From NCBI GenBank assembly GCA_050230475.1, contig JBFLGF010000116.1, positions 1-64,000 on the forward strand: a DNA stretch of 64,000 nucleotides, written 5' to 3'. Origin of the DNA: Ancylonema sp. Its lineage: Eukaryota. A model generated the notes under the pieces. It was not told the DNA's origin. It worked only from the letters and a program-made list of their open reading frames with translations, and ran no database searches. This document shows positions 1 through 52,162 of the stretch, in pieces. The translations under genes were made by a program, and so were the position numbers. Position 1 is the first letter of the stretch. The number at the start of each line of letters is the position of its first letter.

Positions 1-1746
1 ATATAAGCCTTGAGGGTAGCCAGCTCCGGCTCTGACAGGGAGTAGATCGGGCCCCAAGGGGGTTCCTTGCCAGGCATGAGTGGGATTTTTTGGTCGTAGG
101 GTTTGTGGGTGGGGAGGGTATTGGCTGCTTGCTCGGAGAACACGTTTGCAAAGTCGTGATACTCTGGGGGGGGCTTGGCTAACAGGGCAGGGTCTGGGGG
201 GTTATGAACAGCGGCTAAAATTGCAAGTTTTGGCGGGGGATCGGGAAGGGGAGGGGAGGGGGGGGGGGGAGGAACTAGAGTGCAGGCACTGGGCAGCACA
301 CTTGGAACTCGTGAAGGACAGGGTGCGTGTCTGCTAGTTGATAGTGGGGTGGTGCTTGTGCAGCCAGGGGAAGCCCAGAACGACCGGGCAGTGGGAAGGG
401 CGGGTGACATCCAAGGTAACGGTTTCTATATGGTTGCCTGGGGATCGGAGCTAGGTTAGGAAATAACAGGTGATCGGGCCGGCAACCGGAGGGCTGCCAT
501 CGATGCGTTCGACCTGGATAGGGTGGGGATAGGGGTGAGTTGGGGGATTGTTGTTTGCCAGGATCTGGGGGTTGATGAAGTTGTCCGACGCCCCGGAGTC
601 GATCAACACCGTGACAGGTATGCGGGGAAGGGGATATCGGAGTATCTGGCAAGCTAGCAAGAGCTGGCGGGGTTGGAGAAAGGGGGAGGGTAGGGAAAGG
701 GGACCCGCACAGAGTTCCTCCTAGGACTGTGTGGGGGGATCGTTTTTTGGCTCCGCGGGTTGCAGGTTCAGGAAGCGCACCGTGTGGGCCTTGCCTTTGT
801 TGGGACAAGTCCGTGTGACGTGACCTAGCAGACCGCAGTAGTGGCACAGGTTACCGGCAACGCGGCGAGCCATCTCAGATGGTTCCACTATCAGGACTTG
901 GCGGCGGGTTCCATCGATGTCCATGGGGACGATTTGCAAGTGAGAGGGGATCGGCTGGGGAGACTCATCAGCAACTCTGGCCTGGGGGGGGGTGTATGCA
1001 GGTTTGGAGGGCCGATCTAGACTGCTGGCAGCCATACTGTTCTCCACCTTCTTGACAAAGGTAACGTACTCAGAGAAAGTCTCAAGGGGATCCAGCACCT
1101 TGAAGATCTCCCTACGAAGCTCAGGTTTGAGTTTCTAAAAGAAGGTGTAGATACAGGGGTGGTCAGGCCAGCGGAGAAAGGTCTTGACACTGGGTCTGAG
1201 CTGGACGGTGAAGTCTGACACTGAGCCTGTCTGTCTGAGGTCGCGTAGATGGTGTTCTTTGGTGAGGCGAGTATCCCCCTCCCCAAAGCAGTCGTGAAGG
1301 TTCTTCAAGAGCCTGGTTGCACCAAACTGTGCCGGGAGGTCACCATTCTCGTCGGGGTAGTTAGAGAACCACTCATAGGCAGGTTCAGTAAGGAGGTTGC
1401 CCACGTAGTGGATTGTCTGGACAAGGTTGCTAAACCGCTTAGGAGGCAGCCTGATCATGGATTTGACCTGGTTGCAGAAGGTATATAGATATTTGGGTGT
1501 ACCATCGAACTTAGGGGGATCAGCTGGAACCAGGTCCTGAAGAGTAGGGGTATTTTGGGGTGCGGGAGCGGCTGGATCAGGGGTAGAAGCCATGTAATTA
1601 GCTTCATAAGCTACCTGTTCAGAAAGCTCCGTAAATTTGCTTTTAATATCCTTGTTTTCATCCGCCAAAATTCCGATTTTTTCATCCTGAGATTGTTGCA
1701 TCTGGCGTAAAGCTTCCATGACTTCTTGTAAATTGGGAGAAGACAT
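1..1746 (-). pseudogene. Gypsy gag-protease-RT(start), with several in-frame TAG codons
   Basis: ORFs 1135-1746, 721-1098 and 451-660 are in one frame, separated by TAG codons at 1135, 721 and 451; a conserved W (P.I.W) has also become TAG. Confidence 0.85.
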
Positions 1747-1839
1747 GGTGGAATGATGAGGAGATGAAAAAGAAGGCTGATGAATGAGGTTCAGATCCAG
1801 AATACCCTAAAAAAAAACTCCAAAAAAGTCCTATCAAAG

Positions 1840-4751: not shown

Positions 4752-5432
4752 GTTGAACCTGGCGAAAATAAAGCGCAAGCAATTCAGGATATTCGCGAAG
4801 AACCGGTGGAGATGCAACGTGAACTCCTGCAGGTCTTCACCACTCAGTTCAACGCACTTTTGGAGATGTTGCGAGAGATGGCTAGAGTGGCATTAGGGGC
4901 CCCGACCAACCAGTGCTGCTGCGGGGGTAACTCAGCTGCTGCTGGTGCTGCAACTGCTACTGCTGCTGCTGGTGCTGCAACTGCTACTGCTGCAGCTCCT
5001 GCTGCTGCTGCTGCCAATGGTGATGAAAGGGGCCTTTCTTCCAATGATAGTCGGCTTTCGGCAGAGCAAGTCTTGCTCTTGATGGACGCCGACGGGTCAT
5101 TATTTGACCACCTCTCCAACCAGATCGAATCCCCCCGCGACCTGCTGATGGCTTGGGAGGACGGATTCGCAGGCTGTCCTCCCATTGAGGTTATTGATGA
5201 CAAGCGAAGCAAGTACAAGAGGAAATGGAGAGCTGGGGGTGACCGCCACAAGAAGTTCTACGGTTGGCAGGTTGTCTACAAAGACATTCGAAGTGCAGGA
5301 GACAAAGAGGATCGGATCAAATACTCCGAGGCCATGCACGTGACGTATGGTGCGAAGCGTGGAGGGGCCATTTCATCACTGTCGAAATTGATCCAGAAGA
5401 GCAAGGCAAACACAAGGAGTGCTGCCAATTGA
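4752..5432 (+). CDS. GCR1_C-like DNA-binding domain protein (Crypton-type), probably a terminal exon
   Basis: LSNQIESPRDLLMAWEDGFAGCPPIEVIDDKRSKYKRKWR...RHKKFYGWQVVY fits the GCR1_C pattern (DL..EW..G..G.P.I......KWR). Ala-rich linker; in-frame acceptor TAG at 4749-4751; TGA stop. Confidence 0.6.
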   Translation, partial: VEPGENKAQAIQDIREEPVEMQRELLQVFTTQFNALLEMLREMARVALGAPTNQCCCGGNSAAAGAATATAAAGAATATAAAPAAAAANGDERGLSSNDSRLSAEQVLLLMDADGSLFDHLSNQIESPRDLLMAWEDGFAGCPPIEVIDDKRSKYKRKWRAGGDRHKKFYGWQVVYKDIRSAGDKEDRIKYSEAMHVTYGAKRGGAISSLSKLIQKSKANTRSAAN

Positions 5433-8609: not shown

Positions 8610-10608
<1,999 letters not shown>

Positions 10609-12827: not shown

Positions 12828-13750
12828 CATAGTTGCACGAACCGGCTGTGTTTTTTTTTTGGAACCGGTTCCGAGATGGAACCGTTTCGGAACCGGACAA
12901 ACCGGAGGATTTTTAGGGTTTTTATCCTTCTTGCGGTAGAACATCTTTTCCCTCCTAAAAAATGTAAGCGGGGGAAATATATCATTGTACATGGTCATGT
13001 TGATGACTCCCCGTCACTTCTAGACATTAAAATTGTTAAATATTTAATCGGAAAAATATGGCACGGCCATTGCAAGTTTTAATTCGCTTTATTTCGCGCC
13101 ATGGCAGGACGTGGTGCAATTTCATTGGCAGAAAACAACACTCGGCCTTCCACTTTGACAGACACATCCAGCTTTGGAGAAGCAAGGGATGTGGAACAGA
13201 GAGGAGAAGATTATAACTATAAAAGTAGTGTTAAATCTTTGAAAGAAAGATTTGCAAGAGAAAATACATGGACGGTTGAAGCATATGTCAAGTACCATTA
13301 GATTACGGGTAAAACATCTTCTCGTAACATTTTCACTTGGAGGTATAACACGGACGTGGGAATGAGGGAATATATATGGAACGGAGATGAGCATAGGATT
13401 ATCTTAAAACGACATAACCATTTCGTTTAACTACTTGTACATAAATAGAAACATAGTTTGCAGAGAAGCGAGCAAAACATACAAATGCACCAAAAATCAT
13501 GAGGGTGTACTCATGCGGAAAATGGATTTGAGTATTTTTACAATGGGTGTCATTTGTTTGATTTTTTTGTTGGTGACGAGGTGCACCCAAAAAATACTAT
13601 TTTTCGATTTAGTCTGTGCCATATTACCCCTCAAAATGACGATGAAGTGAAAAAAACCTAAATCTTCCGGTTCCGAACCGCTGCCAATTTTGTCGGAACC
13701 GGTTCCATCTTAAATCCGGTTCGGAAACGGTTCGGTTTAAGACAACTATG
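12828..13750. mobile_element. Non-autonomous hAT element, CATAGTTG-TIR family (opposite orientation to the copies at 32318 and 40434)
   Basis: TIR CATAGTTG...CAACTATG; 8-bp TSD TTGTCTAG/TTATCTAG; subterminal GAACCGGTTCC repeats; internal homology to the other copies. Confidence 0.88.
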
Positions 13751-17774: not shown

Positions 17775-18178
17775 CTTTCTTCTGCCACGAATGCAAGAAT
17801 AAAGCACAACTCTCTTAATACACTCTTGAATCGACAGATCACGTCATTACAAGCGTAGACAAACCAAAAGTGCAAGCTTGAAGTAGGACGGCTGATTACA
17901 GAATCTTGCGTGCAAGTCCACACCTAGTACACAGTGATCGATCGAACATCTGAGTCAAACTATCGACACTACTCTAGTCAACACCAATCACAACTGAGCA
18001 TTGTGCCACATCAGCTAATCTTATCGACACGGGTGCTGCCTGGCCACAACTTGTCGACACAATCATTACTTGCGTGTTCGGCAGGCATTTGCTGAATTAC
18101 AACAAAACTTAAAGCTAGAACGAAGAGATATCATAAATCGATATAACAACAAAAGTTCACAGCCCCTAAAAACTAACA
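17775..18178 (-). repeat. LTR fragment of the Copia family at 33552-36066
   Basis: Colinear similarity with 33552-33969 (CAGATCACGTCATTACAA, CAAAAGTGCAAG.TTGAAGTAG, ACCTAGTACA); both start TGTTAGTTTTT.GGGGCTGTG on the minus strand. Confidence 0.8.
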
Positions 18179-18446
18179 ATCTCACGACATAGCTACGTGA
18201 ACAAGCTACGTAGCTACGTTTACTCCTAACGAGCAAGCTACGTAGCTACGTGAACATAGCTACGTTTACTCCCCTCCGTCGTAGTAAAACTCTCGCTCGT
18301 CCGCGTTGTAGTGTAGCGCGAAGAACTCCACTGGCAAGCGCAAAGCAACTTGCTCGTTCCTGTCCTCTTCTTCCCCCCCCCAATCCCGGTCACCCCCCCC
18401 TCTGAGCCTGCCCCGCAGACGTGAGGCCAAGGGTGGGGTCCGAGCC

Positions 18447-19450
18447 CTATCGGGGGTGAAGGAAGGAGAGGATGCCACCAAACAAGCGCAGCACGTGGCG
18501 GTCGATAGCCTGGCCAATCATCTGGTGGCGGGAGGCGAGGGAGACAGTGGGGCCACCGTCGGTGTCGTCTGTCTCGAAGCCCGTAAGGCGCTCCTTCTCG
18601 GCAATAGTTGGCCCTTCCTAGACGTGGTTGTAGAGGTGGCTAGGGCCCGGGCGGTTGCCAGAAGGTCGAAGCGCATGGCTGTTAGGGAACGAGACAAGGG
18701 TGGGCAGAGCGCGACGCTCTTGCCCTAGCACGTTGACGATCCTATGTGGCGGACTGTCGGTAAAGTGCAGAGCTGTGGTGTGGAACTCCTCCAGCACGGT
18801 GGTGAGGCTGGTCAAGGGGTGGTTAGGGGGAAAGAGACGACGCAGGTTTGCTGGAGACATCATGTTAGTCCAGAACCGTCGGTAACGGTGTGACAGTCCT
18901 CCTACCACGCAAGCATGAAAGGGAATACTCGGCTCACCCAAAATAACTTTGATCAATGCATCAGCATCACGCACAGCCCTTGGGGCATCATCACGAATGC
19001 ACACATTCTCAAGCAAATACAACACGGGTCTACCATCTTGACAGTCTTGAAACCACTTGAGCAAACGCACGACTTCAAGAAAGACCTAGAACCTAGCATC
19101 CTGAATGCCACGGTTGGGTCCAGCAGCACTGAACGGCTAGCATGGGAAGCCGGCCCCGAACATGTCAACGGGGCCATGATGTGCCACAAAGTTGGCCAAT
19201 TGGGTGTTAGAAATGAGACGCACTTCCTGTGGAAAACGTGTATCAAAACCAAGCAGGGTCGAAGTAGGCAAGAGATGGGGTTAGCGAAGACGAAGCTTTT
19301 GGACAAACACTTGAACAACAACAAGCACATTTGGATCTACCGTATATCAATGAAAGTATACTTGTACACCAGCAGACCTGCTTCTATTGCTTCCACCAGT
19401 TTGGGGCACCCTACCCCCCTACACACCTCTATGATATGGACACCACGAGA
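18447..19450 (-). pseudogene. C5-cytosine DNA methyltransferase domain (retroelement-borne, inactivated)
   Basis: Motif I IIEVCRGVG; IV DMFGAGFPC*PFS (Cys 19140-19142, TAG 19137-19139); VI YLLENV; VIII HRYRRFWTN; IX EKERLTGF; X MIGQAID; one frameshift near 19340 and several stops. Confidence 0.9.
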
Positions 19451-20060
19451 CTGTTGCTGAGGTGTGAGGTGTTGGACGGTGATAGTGATGGGTTGCACCC
19501 GATGAGCTTCAGGTCCAGTCCATGGAGGTAAAGGGGGAAGTGGCTCCCCTGTTGGGATGGGTGGCTGCTCAGCATCCAGGCGTTTGATGAGCTACCGGTT
19601 TACCTTTGTCTGCCGAAAGGCCCATGTGACGTTAAGTCGGGCAAGGTCCTGCGCTTCCGGACTGAGGTGGCTGGGGCTCTGGAATGAGAACCCGGGCACG
19701 TCGGGCAATTTCTTCAGCGACAGTCTGGTTGGCGACGTCGAGATCGAGCTGTTCGAGAAATGGTAGAGGTGCACGGAAGACTTGGTTGCGACGAGCAAAT
19801 AACAACGGCAAAGGTCCTACACGGTTGCCCATGTTATGACGGGACAACCGGTTCACATTTGCACAACCTGCATCTTGACCAGATCACGATGCTGCACAAG
19901 ATCCTCAAGAGGCTGACGAGCAAGAGGCATAGCACGAGTGGCAAGCACCCAGGTGGTAAGATGCTCTGTGGACTCGGCAACAACGATATCACCACGAGCA
20001 TCCTCTAGCAGATTTGCGTGAGCTTGCCACTGATCGGCTAAGTTGCGCATGACATCGACC

Positions 20061-20756
20061 TCACCTCTGACCGAAGTGACTCCCTGCGTCACCTGCATAG
20101 TTATGTAGCAAACCTGCATCCACACGTTCTCTTAGCTGGTCTGGAGTGACATAGAGGTCAAGAGGAATCCGAGCCTTGAGCTTGGCTCGCGTGTTCCAAT
20201 CAGGGACAATCTCCCAGTAGGAGTCAATGAAGTTGATGCAAGCGGTCACCCTATTGACAAAATGGGCTCCTAATAGTACATCATAGCTAGTAGCGTTGTC
20301 CACCAGCACATGCAAGAAAGCTTTGACTTCATGAATAGTTCCTAGTAAGATGATGGCTACCTTCTTTTTTAAGACACCACGGCACTTAGCTGATGCACCT
20401 AAAGCTACCGTGTACGTGATGCCTTCATTCATATCCGCATTTGTCAACCCCGTTTGGTCTGCGACCCGTTTACCTAGCATGACGAAGTTTGCACCTGTGT
20501 CCAGCACTACGCCATCCTTGGGGACCACTCCGTTGATGGTGACCACATCAGCCTCATTTGGAATGGTAAGATGCTTCCACATAACAAGGCCTCTCAGGTT
20601 CGGAGGTACAAGAGCAACATATCCATCGTCTAGTTGCAAGTGTTGCAGAGCATGGACGAGGTCGGGAAGTGTACTTGACTTACTCTTGCTGGTTGTGTGC
20701 TGTCCTAACTGACTAGAGAGAAGAGTGCGGATTTCCTCCACAAAAGCGAAGTCCAC
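20061..20756 (-). pseudogene. Retroviral-like aspartic protease region
   Basis: VVLDTGANFVML catalytic motif and YDVLLG closing motif. Confidence 0.85.
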
Positions 20757-22132
20757 CTCAACAGAATCCCAGATGAATGAAGAAACCTTGTTGAGGGGAT
20801 CGCAGGCTCAGGAGAGAAAACCTGCGGCACCCATGTCGACAGGTGGAGGAAGAGGACCGAAGTCAAGGGAACAAGTAAGATTAGGCATCCCCTCATATCC
20901 TTCATATTTTACAGATGGAAGCGTTCTTTTGACTGGGGCTCTAGGTGGAGACGGGAAAGGTGTGATTTCTCCAAAGTCAGGGAGCACAGCAAGCGCCGAA
21001 TCCCCAACACGTTTTCTCCCTTGGCCCAGACAGCTAGACACCGCTGCCCTTCCTCCTTGGTTTAGGTCTAAGGGGGTTCCTATATGCTGGCAAGATTGCT
21101 GCCCACTTGTAACAGACTATGCCTGGGACAAAATTGGACTCACGGACTCCTGAGGACAGACGCGACGAACCTATTCCTAGACTTGAGAGCAGATGTGGTG
21201 AGTGTGAAGACTTCACATTCTGTCCTTCTATTGCCGTACCGAGGGAGACTAACTGGCAAGGCATTTGAAACCTAACCTTGGCTGCTGATCTGACTGGAAA
21301 CTTGCTAGGAAAACTAGTGGCAGACTCTCTAGCTAGCATGCAAGGTTGGGGCCTATCCAAATCCCTATACATCATGCTACTAGAAGTCAGAGTGGTGCCA
21401 GCCAACTCTTCCTTCCCTACCTCTGGCAAAATGGAATGCATCTGGTCACAAGGGGACGGAGTCAGAAAGACCGGGAAGAGAGTACCATCCGATGTTGAGA
21501 GGGAGGGACTACTATGTGATGGCTGCTCATTTACTTTTCTCCCTAAGTTTAGCAGGTTGGGCACCGCTTGCTCAAATTTCCTTCCCGTGGGATTTTGGCT
21601 GAGAGAAGAGTTGCACCCCCAGTGTGAGCGGTGGAACTGCTTCGTGTCATACGAGCCTGGGCACTGGAGCACAAGTTGTTAGACACTCCCTGCTCAGGTT
21701 CTACAGGAGTTGGGCATACAGTTGCCCCGGCCTTATCTAACACTCTCGGCTAACCTGCCAGATGTTGTACAATGATGACTGAATTACCTTAGCTGCTGCG
21801 TGTGCACTCTTCACATGATCTGCAATCTCACTCAATGCAAATATGCCTGGTTCTTTTGGCAAAACATTTGACGGAGGTTCATCTTCTAGCGTAGTACCTG
21901 GCTCTAGATCACCAAAATCCCTGTGACGAAAGCTGAGGAGAAACTTGGTTGTATCACCTGATCTGCCGTAGTCTGGCCCCTGACCCCGTCCGCTGGAGGT
22001 GGTCACAGCTGCCGGTAGATGTTGGTACCGGCTGAGCGTCGACAGCGTCAGATTTTGGCTCTGGCGTCCGGGTCCGAGACGCGTCCTGGACGGTCCGGGA
22101 CGCAACTATGGTCAAAACACTTGGTATAATTA

Positions 22133-32317: not shown

Positions 32318-33253
32318 CATAGTTGCACGAACTCCGAACCGTTTCCGAACCGGATCTTAGATGGAACCGGTTCCGACAAAAGTGGCCGCGGTTTGGAACC
32401 GCGGGATTTAGGGTTTTTTCACTCAAACGGCATTTTGAGGGGCTATATAGCTCGGAAAAATCGACGAACAGTTTTTTTTTTGTCCCACTTCATTGTCTAT
32501 CCAAAAAAAAAAAAAAAACAATTGATATACATCGTGAAAAAACTCAAAACGGTTTTTTTCATGAGTGTATCTACCTGCTTTTGGTGCATTTTTCTGTTTT
32601 TCTCAATTTTGTGCACACTTTCTTGCAATTTATGTAAAAGTAGTTCTATAACAAGTTCCACTTTCAGTTTCAATCTTTTTTCAACCATCCATAAACTCCA
32701 TTCCATATATCTTTCTTCATTCCCATTCCGTGTTTTAATTCCCATGTGAAAATGTTGCGACATAATGTTGTTACCCGTTTTGTATTGCCACTCGAATTTT
32801 ATTTAACTTTCCATGTTTCTTTTATTTTCAATCGTCTACTCAAAGCTGCGGCAATCCACTGCGGCAATCCATTTATATCCACTCTCTTCCTACTCAATTC
32901 TCCTACCTTTCACATAAAGTGCTGTTTTCTGCCAACCAAAATGCACCACGTCCTGCCATGGCGCGAAATAAAGCAAATTGAAACTAACAATGGCCGCGCC
33001 ATATTTTTCCGATATTTTTTTTCACAATTTTAGCGTAAAAAATTCACAATTTTAGCGTCTCAAAATGACGTAGAGTCATCAACATGAACATTTACAACGA
33101 TTTATTTCCCCCGCGTACGTTCTTTGGGAGGGAAAAAATGTTATGCCGCGGTAAGGAGTAAAACCCTAAAAATCTCCCGGTTCGTCCGGTTCCGAAACGG
33201 TTCCATCTCGGAACCGGTTCCAAAAAAAAAAAACAGCCGTTCGTGCAACTATG
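32318..33253. mobile_element. Non-autonomous hAT element, CATAGTTG family
   Basis: TIR CATAGTTGCACGAAC / GTTCGTGCAACTATG; TSD ACTGAGAT/AGTGAGAT. Confidence 0.9.
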
Positions 33254-33551
33254 AGTGAGATAATGAATTCATCCTGAGTAGTGCCCAATGCTCCGTGGTA
33301 CGGTGTGATAGGCGGTAAAGCTGTCATATTGTCTCCCCAAATTATATGATTTCTTTGATACGTCGGTACTGCTAGAGTTGGTGACGGTGGAGTTGGTGAC
33401 GGTGGAGTCGGTGGTGGTATCGGTGTGGGTAACGGTATTTCACGGTTTGGGAGTACATGACTTTCAGGGTTGTGTGAACTTGATCGTGAGGATGGGCTGG
33501 TTGCCCTAGTAATAGGTGTTGCTCCGAATAATCGTCTAGATGGTGTGCGAA

Positions 33552-36066
33552 CTTTCTTCTGCCATCGATGCAAGAATAAAGTTCACTTCTTCTTAATCTC
33601 TTTGAATCAAACAGAATCAAGCAGATCACGTCATTACAAACGTTGACGCAACAAAAGTGCAAGTTTGAAGTAGAAAATATTGATTTAAAGAATTCAGCAT
33701 GCAAGCCCAGACCTAGTACAATCGATTGCTGCCTGGTCAAAGGATCTACTGCTATCGAAACTACTTCAATCATATCTAAGCATTCTGCCACATCAACTTG
33801 TTCTTATCGACACTTGTGCCAGATGGCCAAGTAATCATTGAAACAAGGACATCGGCCTGCAGCCGGGCTGCAACCTGCATTTGCTGAACAACGACAAAAC
33901 TAAAGCTAAATCCCCGGTATCGCTAAAATCGATGTAACGACAAAAGTACACAGCCCCCAAAAACTAACACCCCCTCCCTGGGTACTTCCGTATTCCCCCT
34001 CTAAAAACGATAACCAAAACGATATCGATTTTACAAACAACTCGCAACAAAAACTCACAAAACTTACGAACCTCTGCAAAGTATGAACCATCTACAATTA
34101 TTTTTCATACACCAACCCCACCAGATCACAATTCTTCTTCAACACCTTGACAGACAGTGGTTTTGTCAACATATCAACAGCCTGGTCTTCACTCTTGACA
34201 AACTGGAGACTTGTCTTTTTCTTGGACACCCTCTCTCGAATGGACTGATACTTGATCTCGATGTGTTTGGAGCGCTTGTGAAAAACAGGGTTCTCAGCAA
34301 GTTTCGATGAACTCTCATTGTCTCCCAGCAACAGCACACTCCCCCCACCAATACCCAACTCCTTTTGCATCTGGCTCAAATAAATGGCCTCATTTCGAGC
34401 AGCACTCAATGCCAAATACTCACTCTCACAGCTTGAGTGTGTGACTGTCTCCAGCAGACCTTCCAACTCACAGCAGCTCCTCCACTAAGAAAGACATAGC
34501 CAGTTCTCCCCTTCCTAGTGTCGACGTCGTCACCATGACTAGCATCTGAGTAACCCATGACTGGAAAATCACTACCTTTCTTATACATCAGCCCCAAATC
34601 GACAGTCCCCTTGAGGTAGCGCAAAACTCTCTTCACCCCCTCCCAATGCTTGTCGCCTGGCTTGACTGTATCGACACAAGGAGTTAACAGCAGCTGTCAG
34701 ATCAGGTCTTGTGCCAGAAGTCAGATTCAACAAACTGCCCATTGCAGACTTGTATCCCACACCCTCGATTCTAGCAGATTCAGAAGGAGATTCACAGTTT
34801 TCAAAAAAAAAAACACCCAGCTCTAGAGGAGTAGAAGCAAAATTGCAGTCTTGCATCCCAAACTTCGTGAGGAGATCTCTGGCATATTTCTCTTGCACCA
34901 AAAACACGTTGCCATCAGACTGCCGTCGAATCTCAAGCCCCAGCAAGAACTTTGCTTCCCCTAGATCTTTCATGTTATACCGCTTTCCCAGCCCTCTTTT
35001 CACCCCAAAAATAGTTCGCCAGCCTGATGCATAGGAGAAACACATCATCCACATATAGCGCCAAGTAAGTGCTTCTGGCCCTTCTCCCATAGCATAAAGG
35101 CCAAAATCTGAAGCCAGACGATGAAATTGCAAGCCTTTCAGCACGTCGTCGATGTGCTGATTCCATCCTCTCGGTGCCTGCTTGAGGCCATACAAGCACC
35201 AGAGCAGCCACACCAAATCTGCTTCACCACGCCCACACGTGCCGTCACGGGCCTCCATGTACACTTCCTCTTCCAGGGGTGCATAGAGAAAAGCTGTTGT
35301 TACATCCATCTGGTGCATGTGTAGACCCCTGGAAGCTCCCATGGCCACAAGTTGACGAATGCTCTCAAAACGAACAGTTGGAGAAAAGGTCTGATCGTAG
35401 TCCTCTCCCTCTACTTGACTGAATCCCTTAGCCACAATTCTTGCTTTGTATTTTTCTACAGAACCATCTGCATTGAATTTGATCCTGAACACCCACTTTG
35501 ACTCCACAACTTTCTTCCCCTTCGGCCTTGGCACAAGTCGATAGACATGGTTTTCTTCTTGTAGACTTGCCATTTTTGCAGCCATTGCATCTTTCCACTC
35601 AACTGCTTGTGAACTGTTAAGAGCTTCCTCCACAGTCGTTGGTGTCTTTATCTCACTTTCCAAGTTGGCAACAAAAGCAGCAGCAAATTTGTTGAGATGC
35701 ATTCCTCTGTTCTCCCTTGCAGATCGACGAACGGGCTCACGATCATCGATAGAAGTTTCTGAAAAGTTGTCGTTCACGCCAAGTGGATTAAGAGGAGTAG
35801 CATCATCTGGATACCATTCTGGACCATCTTCCAGGTGATCTTCGTCCTCATCGTCTCCACTAGAATTGCTGACAAGTTTTGGACGATCCGCACTCTGAGG
35901 AAGAGGAGATCTCGGAAGTTGTGGTAATGGATTTCCCAGAGCATCAGAGATCTCTTCATCGACAGAATTTGGATCGCCATAAGTAGGTTGCCCACCTCCA
36001 AAATTGCCCCCTCCGAGACCAACACTACTCCCTTCTGCTCCTTGATCTCTTCCATCCTTGCATTCT
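33552..36066 (-). mobile_element. Ty1/Copia 3' half: RT, RNase H, PPT and partial 3' LTR
   Basis: KWVFRIK, YKARIVAKGFSQ, QMDVTTAFL, LYGLKQAPRGW, YVDD, GYSDAS, DNESS, KRSKHIEIKY; PPT GGGAGGGGG directly before LTR start TG at 33969; frameshifts present. Confidence 0.93.
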
Positions 36067-36069
36067 GAA

Positions 36070-38513
36070 TGGCAGTGAATACCAATTCGAGACGCGGTTC
36101 CAATCACCCCTCGGTACGACATTCGTTTTAACCCTGGTGCATTGCAACGTGGACTTAACGCGTGGGTTCCTTTTGGAGGAACCAATTGTGCAGGGCTGAT
36201 AATCGTCGTGAACGCAATTACAACTGCGGTGCCTACATCAACAATGACATCAACGTCGACGCACGATCAGTGACACGAGCATTGTTGCCGAAGATTCAAG
36301 CACGTCATCCAAGACAACTTCCTTCCAGTGCAATTCGAGGATTTGACACTAGATTTCCTCATGACATTTCACAAATTTCGAATGCTCATCTTGACAGGTT
36401 CATCGGAGACAAAGGACCTATCGAGTTTATTTTTGCACGATGGGAGTGCCAAATGGTAAGCAAGGTGGGTAACCAGCAGGGGTACAAAGACGAACGGTTC
36501 CCATACTTCTTCATGTCGGGGCGTCGAAGGACTGGTTCCGAGCAAAGACGTTTCTTGAGGTCGTCGAAGCTTTGTTATTGCGGTTCGGACCAGTGCCACT
36601 TCACGTCGCCTTTGAGGAGGGCTTTGAGGAGCGCTACAATGCACGAAAGCTGAGGGACAAACTTGCGATAGTAAGAGAAAAGACCGAGTACAACACGGAG
36701 TTGATGAACATCCTTGGGTGGTGGCATGTCGCGAATGGCCCTGGTTTTCTCGTCTTGTGGAGTGATGCCTTCCGGGGTGAGTTTTTCGTCCCAGGAACTC
36801 CATTTCTTTGGCAAAGAAAAGACATTTACCAGGATGACGCTTGAGTTTGTATTGACGAAGTCTATTGAAGACTTTTTGCAGATGCATGAGATGATTTTTA
36901 AAAGTTTTACTCCAATTGGTGATGTCGTCGATGTAACATCGTGCATTGGTGAGACCATTGAGAATAGCGTCCATGGTACGCTGAAAGAAAGGTGGTGCAT
37001 TTTTTAGACCATAGGGTACCACATTCCACTCCCAGAGTTTTCGGTTAGCCCCCCAAAATGCTGTCTTTGGCTTATCCTCTTCTTTGACGGGGATCTGGTG
37101 ATATCCTTGTCGTAGGTCCATTTTGCTGAAGATTTTGGCATCATCCATCTCAACAAAAATATTTTCAAGTTTGGGTAAGGGGTACCTATCCGATGCAGTG
37201 TGACTGTTGATAGGTCGGTAGTCTCCACATTCACGAAAGTTTGTGTATTGTCCGTCTTCGTCGTTCTTGCGAACTACCACTGTTGCAGATGCATACTTTG
37301 TGTTACATGAACTAGGCCGAATCATACCAAGGTCATGCAATTTTTTACAGTTGGTTTCCACAAAGTCCCACTCTGTTTGACTGAGCTTGTGAGACCCTTG
37401 AAAGATGGAACCCGTGGTGTCAAGGGGTAACTCCATTGGTGTGTTGTTAGAAGTTCCCAGTTCTTCAAGGCTAAATGCAAAGCAATCTCGATTTGATTCA
37501 AGCAATGCTATCACTTCTGCCTTTTCTGTCGGGGTGAGATGTTCACCAATCTTCCATTGGAACTCTGTCGCCGCGGTTGTAGGTGGTAATTCCTCAGAAG
37601 GATCAAAAAGGTCATTCTCGATCCATGGCAAGGTATCCTTTGTGGTTGCAAGTAGTGCCTGACTGAGGGGAATTGCTTCATGCCGATAACGTTTCTGAGC
37701 AGAGTCAATGGTGAAAGCTGAATCCTTGTTTTCGTAAAACTCGTGCTCTTTGGTGTCGTAGTGCAGTGTATGGTACTGCTCGGGGATTTTGTAGGTGCCC
37801 CCCCCCCGCTCAATGCTCTGAGTGGTGGGGTCCGTTTCCTAACGAGGGTGTGTTGGAACCGACATAGATAGGGTGTCGATGTACGAGGGTAAATTGTGAG
37901 ATGCCATGAGAATGTCACCTACCCAGACTAACATATTTTTGTCCATGGTGCGACCAATAAGTTGACAGCGTGCACTAATGGTGATGCCTGGTGCAGCCGT
38001 GTCGCCATCCTCAAATCCCATGAGGCGTTCTCTTTCCCAAATGTTTGGTGTCTCCCATATTGCTCTGAATGCAGATTGTATACCATACCTGGTCCGGGTG
38101 AATCTCCCTCGAATCGGTACTGAATTGCCAGGGTAAGACACAATGGTTGGCATAGCTATTCGTGGTTGCCCAATCTTGTCGACCAATGCCCGGGGTGGCG
38201 TGTCATTTGTGGTGACAACTGTTGGTTTGTGGTGCAAATCAAGGATCTCAGTCAAGGGTTTCAACGGTGGAGTGGCCGGGAGTTCCAACTCTAGAATATG
38301 AGGTGGTATGAAGTTCGTCCAGAGACATCGTACTCGGTGAGCATTACGGCCGATACTGCATGCATCGACAACTGCAGGGTATCCGAGAAATGTCTTGATG
38401 AGAACTGTGGTGTCTTGGATCTCCTTCGGAAACTCGTCCGCTGCATTAAACACTTGATCAAAGTCCAGCCTTACCCACCCATCTCCGTCTTGGAGAACAC
38501 TTACCCTCACGGC
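36070..38513. mobile_element. Rearranged DNMT-bearing Gypsy element (copy 2): DNMT N-part on + (36070-36512 and 38430-38513); DNMT C-part, linker and RT inverted on - (38429-36513)
   Basis: + strand: VPFGGTNC, GFDTRFPHDIS, IFARWECQ, ERFPYFF then KLVRCIKHL...SVLENTYP. - strand: HRVRCLWTN, ERERLMGF, LIGRTMD, then RT. All segments align with copy 1. Confidence 0.88.
36513..37838 (-). pseudogene. Gypsy reverse transcriptase with upstream linker, in frame with the DNMT C-half
   Basis: DYRPIN, DRYPLP, KMDLRQGYHQI, KTAF, PYGLKNAP, YIDD; one frameshift near 36790; truncated at PVLRRPD. Confidence 0.92.
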
Positions 38514-40433: not shown

Positions 40434-41356
40434 CATAGTTGCACGAACTCCAAACCGTTTCCGAACCGGATATTAGGTCAAACCGGTTCCGCCAAAAGTG
40501 GCCGTGGTTCGGAACCGGAGGATTTAGGTTTTTTTTTTACTAACGTCATTTTGAGGGGTTATATGGCACGGAAAAACCAAAAAATGTTTTTTTCAAGTGT
40601 AGCTCGTCATGCTATATCCAACAAAAACATCAATCAAATCATATACTTTGTAAAAAACCCCAAAACGATTTCCCGCATGATTACACCTTCATGATTTTTG
40701 GTGTATTTACGTGTTTTGCTCTATCTTATGGAAACTGTGTTTCTATTCATGTACAAGTAGAAAAATGAAATGGTTATATATTTTTACGATCATCTTATGA
40801 TCATCTCCGTTCCACATATCTTTCGTCATTCCCATTGTCGTGTTGTACTTCTATGTGAAAATGTTGCGGGAAGATGTTTTACCCGTAATCAAATGGCACT
40901 TGACATAAGCTTTGATCTTCCATGTATTTCAAATCGTGCTCTCAAAGCTCTAACACTACTTCTATATCTTTACTCTTCTCCTCTACCTTAAACATCCCTT
41001 GCTTATCCAAATCCAGATATGTGTGCCAGAGTGGAAGGTCGAATGTTGTTTTCGGCCAATGAAATTGCACCACGTCCTGCCATGGCGCGAAAGAAAGCAA
41101 ATTAAAAGTTGCAATGGCCACGCCATGTTTTCCCGATAAAATATTTATCAATTTTAGCGTCTAAAAGTGACGTGGGGTCACCAACATGAACATGTACAAC
41201 GATATTATTGTCCCCGCGTATATTTTTTGGGAGGGAAAAAATGTTATACCGCGGGAAGGAGGAAACCCTTAAAGGCGCCTGGTTCCTCCGGTTCCGAAAC
41301 GGTTCCATCTCGGAACAGGTTCCAAAACAAAAACACAGCCGGTTCGTGCAACTATG
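40434..41356. mobile_element. Non-autonomous hAT element, CATAGTTG family
   Basis: 15-bp TIR CATAGTTGCACGAAC; perfect 8-bp TSD AATCTAGG. Confidence 0.93.
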
Positions 41357-41374
41357 AATCTAGGCACGAAAGTG

Positions 41375-42024
41375 AACACACCCTCATGATTTTTGGTGCA
41401 GTTGTATGTTTTGCTCGCTTCTATGCAACCTATGTTTATATTTATACACAATTAGTTCAACGAAATGTGTATATATTTTTGTGATCATCCTATTCTCATC
41501 TCCGTTCCATATGCCTTCCCTCCTTCCCATTTCCGTGTTACACTTCCATGTGAAAATATTGCTAGAATATATTTTACTCGTAATCTAATGGCACTTGACA
41601 CATGCTTCAACTTTTATGTATATTCTCTTTCAAATCGTGCTCGCAAAGCTCTAACTCTACTTCTTTAATTGTACTCTTCTCCTCTACCTTGTACATCCCT
41701 TGCTTCTCCAAAGGCAGATGTGTGTGCGAGAGTGGAAGGTCGGGTGCTGTTTTCGGCCAATGAAATTGCACCACGTCCTGCCATGGCGCAAAAGAAAGCA
41801 AATTAAAACTTCCAATGGCCGCGCCACATTTTCTCGAAAAAAATATTAAATGTATGAAAGTGACGTGGAGTCACCAACACGAACATGTACAACGATATAT
41901 ATTCCCCGCGTACATGTTTTGGGTTGGAAAAAAGGTTATACCGCGGGAAGGAGGAGAACCCTAAAATCACCCAATCTCGGAACCGGTTCCACTTGGAGAA
42001 AAAAAGCCGGTTCGTGCAATTATG
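41375..42024. mobile_element. Left-truncated copy of the same hAT family
   Basis: Colinear with ~40680-41356; ends GTTCGTGCAATTATG. Confidence 0.85.
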
Positions 42025-52091: not shown

Positions 52092-52162
52092 GACCAGGTG
52101 GCGCAGTGGCAAGCGCAGTCCCGCATACGGACAGGTCCCGGGCTTGATCCCCGGCCTGGTCA
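52092..52162 (+). pseudogene. tRNA-like sequence (degenerate, CAT in the anticodon position); tRNA pseudogene or SINE head
   Basis: Acceptor GACCAGG/CCTGGTC; D-arm GCGC-AGTGGCAA-GCGC with A-box TGGCGCAGTGG; T-stem CCGGG/CCCGG; aberrant T-loop CTTGATC and only a 4-bp anticodon stem. Confidence 0.6.

Follow-up and report, generated by a model that had tools for sequence, protein, structure and literature searches.

What DNA methyltransferases (DNMTs) carried by retrotransposons do is an open question, and one published idea, as set out in PMC5890265, holds that a DNMT fused to Pol methylates cDNA during reverse transcription. In the 64,000-nucleotide stretch of DNA analysed here (the window), two retrotransposon remnants each have a TAG directly after the DNMT, and in one of them (copy 2) the reverse transcriptase (RT) follows in the same frame. 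We asked whether this stop reflects the decay of a once continuous open reading frame (ORF) or is a kept feature of the elements and, if it is kept, how the Pol region behind it could be expressed.

Two decayed methyltransferase-bearing elements

Both copies are dead, decayed fragments of DNMT3-bearing Ty3/Gypsy retrotransposons (Table 1), and no flanking repeats (LTRs) were found for either within the window. The protease (PR) precedes the DNMT in copy 1 and the DNMT precedes the RT in copy 2. Relatives of these DNMTs match PF00145, and the elements are akin to proteins of Klebsormidium, Closterium and Mesostigma, a kinship that points to a streptophyte host. The DNMT3-type label is putative and reflects kinship with Klebsormidium nitens proteins, in trees that comprise no host DNMTs. 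The nearest clusters in the ESM Atlas are unnamed; the best of these is eukaryotic, with Streptophyta most frequent, which we treat as a lead only.

The junction of copy 2 reads HPR-TAG-ETDPT on the minus strand (TAG at 37841-37839). Behind the TAG the frame remains open for 489 codons, in which Pfam places RVT_1 at residues 199-350 (E = 6e-27). Apart from this TAG, the copy has no stop in 196 + 345 codons (541) and keeps six CAGs. The peptide behind the TAG is conserved from codon 12 on, yet the frame holds no ATG before codon 135, the first in-frame Met, which is downstream of the conserved pre-RT peptide. Copy 2 is missing gag and protease as well as the first half of its DNMT, and the DNMT is garbled near 38057-38125, with 2-nt indels in contigs of relatives. 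Next to the broken RT end is part of this DNMT's N-terminal half in inverted orientation (36186-36512, plus strand), which marks copy 2 as a rearranged fragment. Immediately behind copy 2 lies a Ty1/Copia RT fragment (34581-36266, minus strand; RVT_2, E = 3e-60).

The junction of copy 1 reads HPR-TAG-GSDPT, also on the minus strand (TAG at 18449-18447). Its DNMT holds three further in-frame TAGs (within 18450-19280) as against four CAGs in 277 codons, the downstream motif beyond the G8 run is in the other (+1) frame, and the copy ends near 18,270 without an RT.

Table 1. Features of the two element copies, with positions in the window.
Feature	Positions	Strand	Evidence
Copy 2 DNMT, C-terminal half (C5 cytosine methyltransferase, putative DNMT3-type cargo)	37842..38462	-	tblastn with related DNMTs; alignments
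Copy 2 in-frame TAG, then G	37839..37841	-	sequence
Copy 2 spacer GAAACGGA, 8 nt, purine-rich, predicted unpaired	37831..37838	-	folding
Copy 2 hairpin, predicted to start at +12: CCCCACC / G10 run, inner CUCA/UGAG	37798..37830	-	folding
Copy 2 pre-RT peptide YKIP..Y..LHY....EFY, conserved	37734..37793	-	comparison with copy 1 and relatives
Copy 2 Ty3/Gypsy RT core, same frame as DNMT and TAG	36789..37244	-	Pfam RVT_1, E = 6e-27
Copy 1 aspartic protease	20250..20543	-	Pfam gag-asp_proteas, E = 1.5e-6
Copy 1 DNMT, decayed, upstream frame breaks	18450..19373	-	tblastn with related DNMTs
Copy 1 TAG at position homologous to that of copy 2, then G	18447..18449	-	alignment
Copy 1 spacer GGCTCGGA and longer predicted hairpin: CCCCACC / G8 run, inner GGCCU/AGGCU	18393..18446	-	folding
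Copy 1 pre-RT peptide homolog (LRLPVEFFALHY....EFY), different frame	18281..18343	-	comparison with copy 2

Conservation and predicted folding of the junction

The initial annotation of this locus had described a UAG followed by G, an 8-nt spacer and the motif CCCCACC at the end of both DNMTs, and had claimed that CCCCACC can pair with a G-run around inner stems that differ between the copies. The motifs are present as described at both ends, on the minus strand, and the stems form on folding, as predicted structures. Over the aligned parts, the two DNMTs are about 40% identical in protein (39%) and 50% identical in DNA. Of 128 ungapped windows, the nine-codon one that spans the TAG is the best, with 22/27 nt identical against a median of 13, and this junction window is more conserved between the copies than the DNMT motifs.

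Counting the U of UAG as +1, the outer stem of each copy's strongest fold starts at +12, where CCCC(A)CC begins to pair with the G-run; the pair probabilities of this C-run/G-run stem are 0.92-0.99 for copy 2 and 0.69-0.80 for copy 1. The predicted structure 8 nt past the stop is clear in copy 2; in copy 1 the stem enters the spacer, reaching 3 nt into it with a probability of 0.7-0.8. The most stable local folds sit at the junction (top 11 of 526 windows in copy 2, top 5 of 815 in copy 1), a ranking that is partly due to C/G content. Against dinucleotide shuffles, the fold of copy 2 is modestly better (z = -1.4 and -2.2; 19/200 and 6/200) and that of copy 1 no better (z = -0.55 and +0.09; 49/200 and 105/200). 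Under synonymous recoding, copy 2 stands out (12/2000 and 2/2000) and copy 1 does not (184/2000 and 734/2000). In a comparison of two sequences only, the outer C:G pairs are invariant, the inner stems cannot be aligned and no pair is changed on both sides. No loop pairing of at least 4 bp that would make a pseudoknot was found within 60 nt in copy 2; the same check gave a separate 9-bp pairing option in copy 1 only. A search of Rfam returned nothing at gathering score, with just two weak miRNA-type matches, at copy 1.

Reading frames of relatives end and begin at the junction

To place the two copies, we took the best 150 of the 2132 proteins returned by a profile search and built trees with FastTree (SH-like support, midpoint-rooted), the DNMT tree having 154 rows. 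Both copies fall in one DNMT clade of 19 rows (SH-like support 100), 17 of which are database members. Nine of these 17 end before motif X, and all eight that reach motif X end 9-29 residues past it, with none running through. These database relatives are known as proteins only, and single proteins from short contigs may stop at contig ends; in the P0003 cluster, 10/10 members end at the same residue on contigs of 573-2274 nt. The HPR ahead of the stop in the window copies is absent from the other members of their clade in the alignment. P0003, P0160, P0163 and P0164 (272 aa) share a common start Met and their DNMT N-terminus looks shortened. As judged from these proteins, the P0003-type family may have a second ORF break or a deletion upstream.

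A Klebsormidium clade, separate from the clade of the window copies, also ends right past the DNMT. Four of its five tree rows, including GAQ93235.1 of K. nitens, a Gag-PR-DNMT protein of 1160 aa, end 13-14 residues after motif X, and among 13 further cluster members 10 have the same end, 2 are divergent in the tail and 1 stops short. In the fifth row, the gene model GAQ80425.1, the last DNMT helix is followed by a PP..GGG peptide and the RT N-terminus. When 159 proteins were classed by the surroundings of their DNMT, 51 had RT/RNase H upstream of it, 23 had integrase next and 8 had RT downstream in the same ORF; 42 ended within 30 residues and 35 ran on without a recognised domain. GG after the DNMT is slightly enriched in run-on proteins (26/107 versus a background of 18%). 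No related DNA was found in the viral contigs, metagenome contigs, prokaryote genomes or plasmids scanned, and ten pattern matches in the DNA scans proved on translation to be chance.

The Pol side was approached with the 200 residues behind the copy 2 stop as query, which returned four proteins, to which cluster members were added. In the RT tree, copy 2 groups (support 100) with six Pol proteins, each an ORF without DNMT and protease. The comparison of these Pol relatives was one of proteins. P0171 and P0175, encoded on 7.5-kb contigs, are complete ORFs of the RT-RH-IN-PHD type and start 6-7 residues before a GGG motif, and P0166 starts 14 residues before it; the background for GGG is 76/8189 20-residue windows. 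The PHD finger of P0171 and P0175 is C-terminal of the integrase. The sister clade of this RT group (support 97) has DNMT and RT within a single ORF.

The ORF break between DNMT and RT is real and conserved in Gypsy-DNMT3 lineages. That the stop is, as had been proposed from the window alone, a kept feature rather than a product of CHG decay is well supported by where the ORFs of relatives end and begin and by the TAG in the sequencing run described below.

The stop codon in a related many-copy family

Run X1 is from an organism whose many-copy family is related to copy 2 (shared words 0.17); X1 and X2 come from one sample, and the junction is not covered by the contigs of X3 and X4. The six runs listed as carrying related sequence included none of RNA, which does not bear on expression. 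At the junction, X1 has a summed depth of about 18,000-21,000 in 21-27 contigs. It carries near-fixed synonymous differences at 37842 (the base before the TAG, 21 contigs) and at 37833 (in the spacer, 27 contigs). Among the 40 of 239 X1 differences listed, none changes the TAG at 37839-37841, and the only indel is a +1 in the G-run, at 362/30,255 (~1%). Since a majority change at 37841 would share contigs with the change at 37842, most X1 copies probably keep the in-frame TAG, a statement at majority level to which minority variants are invisible.

A 3-bp mini-stem around the UAG (37833-37844 and 18441-18452, minus strand), with one compensatory change between the copies (CGU/ACG versus CGA/UCG), was rejected as a candidate element because the two near-fixed X1 differences break it.

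How the region behind the stop could be expressed

Programmed UAG readthrough, giving Gag-PR-DNMT and a minor Gag-PR-DNMT-Pol product, is the best reading of this break and, in our judgement, a rather probable one. Because the peptide is conserved from codon 12 on and the first Met is at codon 135, Pol would have to be reached across this point, and a readthrough site would account for one stop in frame, the fixed G at +4, the 8-nt spacer and the predicted structure at +12. Most ribosomes would stop at the UAG and release Gag-protease-DNMT, and the hairpin beginning 8 nt behind it would allow a small fraction to continue into RT-RNase H-integrase, so that the DNMT would be made at the level of capsid protein and the polymerase as a minor fusion. 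The stop, its frame in copy 2, the nucleotide conservation around it and the ends and starts of relatives' ORFs at this point are observed, whereas the formation of the hairpin, the readthrough and the stoichiometry are what we infer. An unbroken Gag-PR-DNMT frame is presumed for the clade of the window copies; it is seen whole only in the Klebsormidium clade. A single in-frame UAG joining two coding regions is found in copy 2, and copy 1 breaks off without RT. Type III readthrough contexts are given in PMC13517186 as UAG-GGV, -GUA or -GAU; UAG-GGC of copy 1 fits UAG-GGV, and UAG-GAA of copy 2 is not an exact type III hexamer. Readthrough had been put forward in the initial annotation, and the geometry agrees with that of known signals in having a structure from +12, but that annotation had overlooked that the same site can be read as a splice acceptor.

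In that reading, Gag-PR-DNMT would end at TAG/G, which would double as a 3' splice acceptor, and Pol would come from a spliced RNA with an upstream donor, Ogre-like and possibly skipping the DNMT. We consider this unlikely. The pyrimidine-rich stretch before the TAG is free of AG for 80 and 63 nt in the two copies, lengths that are matched or exceeded by 2/42 and 4/78 YAG sites (the site itself included), but with the peptide held fixed the signal is weak, both for the AG-free length (P = 0.036 and 0.074) and for the pyrimidine share of 20 nt (P = 0.49 and 0.10), by acceptor scoring that is generic and not host-trained. The last seven residues imply a pyrimidine share of 0.62 in 11 terminating proteins versus 0.50-0.52 at that offset in 106 run-on proteins. 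Copy 2 has an in-frame donor, TGG/GTAGGT, 84 nt upstream; copy 1 lacks an equivalent, and relatives vary at the aligned residue. The K. nitens model GAQ80425.1 does pass directly from the final helix of the DNMT to the peptide behind the stop, but it also omits part of the DNMT core, which suggests an artefact of the predictor. None of the nine joints listed ends at 37838, a weak argument as these are DNA contigs. Splicing further leaves the hairpin at +12 and the conserved GACCCCACC unexplained, and the ORFs of Ogre are ~274 bp apart versus one codon here.

Less likely still, the UAG could be a true terminator, with Pol started by reinitiation, internally or at a non-AUG codon, or else reached through a frameshift at or near the stop in some families, and with the hairpin or G-run serving that step or an RNA role such as packaging or priming. 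The called starts of the database Pol ORFs close before the GGG motif would suit such a mechanism, but they may be GTG or TTG, and neither window copy has an in-frame ATG from the stop to the conserved motif. A frameshift would agree with the +1 position of the downstream motif in copy 1 as it stands; this offset, however, lies within a homopolymer of an element that has decayed, the frame of copy 2 is unshifted, and the length of the G-run is near constant among related contigs. Finally, both TAGs could have arisen from CAG by independent or inherited decay, with the hairpin a by-product of Pro-Thr and Gly-run codons. Both copies are fragmentary, copy 1 has its other TAGs, and other DNMT-Gypsy clades are continuous (the 8 proteins in which RT follows the DNMT without an ORF break), all of which would agree with decay. 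Against it stand the lack of any other stop in copy 2 with its CAGs kept, the clustering of relatives' ORF ends at this point in two clades with no run-through member, and the unchanged TAG in the X1 differences listed, and we regard decay as largely refuted and very improbable.

Comparison with known elements

The closest published element is KnitGypsy-Dnmt3 of K. nitens, likewise a Ty3/Gypsy with a DNMT3-type domain after the protease, and K. nitens proteins fall in the same set of profile matches and the same tree. The paper assigns the DNMT to the Pol polyprotein ORF, which it shares with RT according to the authors' reply (PMC5890265); in contrast to this single DNMT-RT ORF, the ORF ends after the DNMT in the window copies and in GAQ93235.1, and the DNMT clade of the window copies differs from the Klebsormidium clade. 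An uninterrupted DNMT-RT ORF as published occurs here only in the sister clade, not in the window copies. The text of de Mendoza et al. 2018 (PMC5890265) available to us makes no mention of readthrough, and in the available part of a 2026 preprint on methyltransferase-bearing elements the terms 'stop codon' and 'readthrough' are absent. Within the openly accessible text covered, no paper was found that describes a stop or readthrough separating DNMT from RT. The conserved break between DNMT and RT was not found in print, which applies under the splicing reading as well.

Among readthrough systems, the structures of MoMLV, VEEV and CTFV are described as beginning at +12 (PMC13517186). The gag-pol junction of MoMLV resembles the present one in having G behind the UAG, a spacer of 8 nt, a structure that begins at +12 and pol in frame (PMC13517186, PMC3159437), but it has an H-type pseudoknot and a stop before the protease, whereas the structure predicted here is a simple hairpin and the stop lies behind protease and DNMT. 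By the features examined, the junction falls outside the gammaretroviral pseudoknot class. Ty3/Gypsy elements with an in-frame stop at the Gag-protease boundary have been described (10.1101/2022.12.06.519325; PMC5009743). Tj1, Tosmo and Tcry1 of fission yeast, as described in 10.1101/2022.12.06.519325, are likewise Ty3/Gypsy elements of single-ORF ancestry with a conserved in-frame stop above Pol, but theirs is TGA-CT between Gag and PR, with no cargo enzyme and no hairpin described. Ogre shares an ORF break after the protease, with GAG-PROT as ORF1 and RT-RH-INT as ORF2, and differs in the distance between its ORFs, bridged by partial splicing, and in having no DNMT (PMC6317226).

It is possible, although we would put it at somewhat less than an even chance, that several streptophyte Gypsy lineages moved their Gag/Pol switch behind a captured DNMT by means of retrovirus-like UAG readthrough, leaving the DNMT as abundant as the capsid and able to methylate new cDNA, with RT and integrase rare. 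If so, the readthrough site would lie after the protease and a cargo enzyme, whereas the compared retroelements, as described, have it at the Gag/protease position. A DNMT that ends an abundant Gag-PR ORF could be separated from RT, and each particle would contain many copies of it, which would change the range of its possible action in a directly testable way. Annotations that call such elements 'broken' or splice over the stop would then miss a regulatory signal.

Host genes and other features of the window

According to Pfam matches, the window is eukaryotic and holds intron-containing host genes among transposon remnants, namely PRMT1, a Methyltransf_29 protein, Pmp3, aconitase and a flavodoxin/radical-SAM protein. 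The initial annotation had raised the possibility that the host reads UAG as Tyr, which would alter the proposed switch. The host PRMT1 gene ends in ATG AGA TAG at 10597-10605, the point that corresponds to the C-terminal residue of PRMT1 chains of solved structure; judging by this gene end, the host uses UAG as a stop, and a Tyr code can be set aside. All 41 Tyr codons among 1118 Pfam-matched host codons are TAY, a biased count since the ORFs had been picked as stop-free.

A dispersed repeat family of ~900 nt, 72-86% alike and in both orientations, occurs at 12828-13735, 32318-33254 and 40434-41966. Elsewhere in the window, GCR1_C and Ty3 capsid gave weak matches that stay under the Pfam cut-offs, and there is one tRNA-Met (4752-5432, plus strand; 1135-1806, minus strand; 52092-52162, plus strand).
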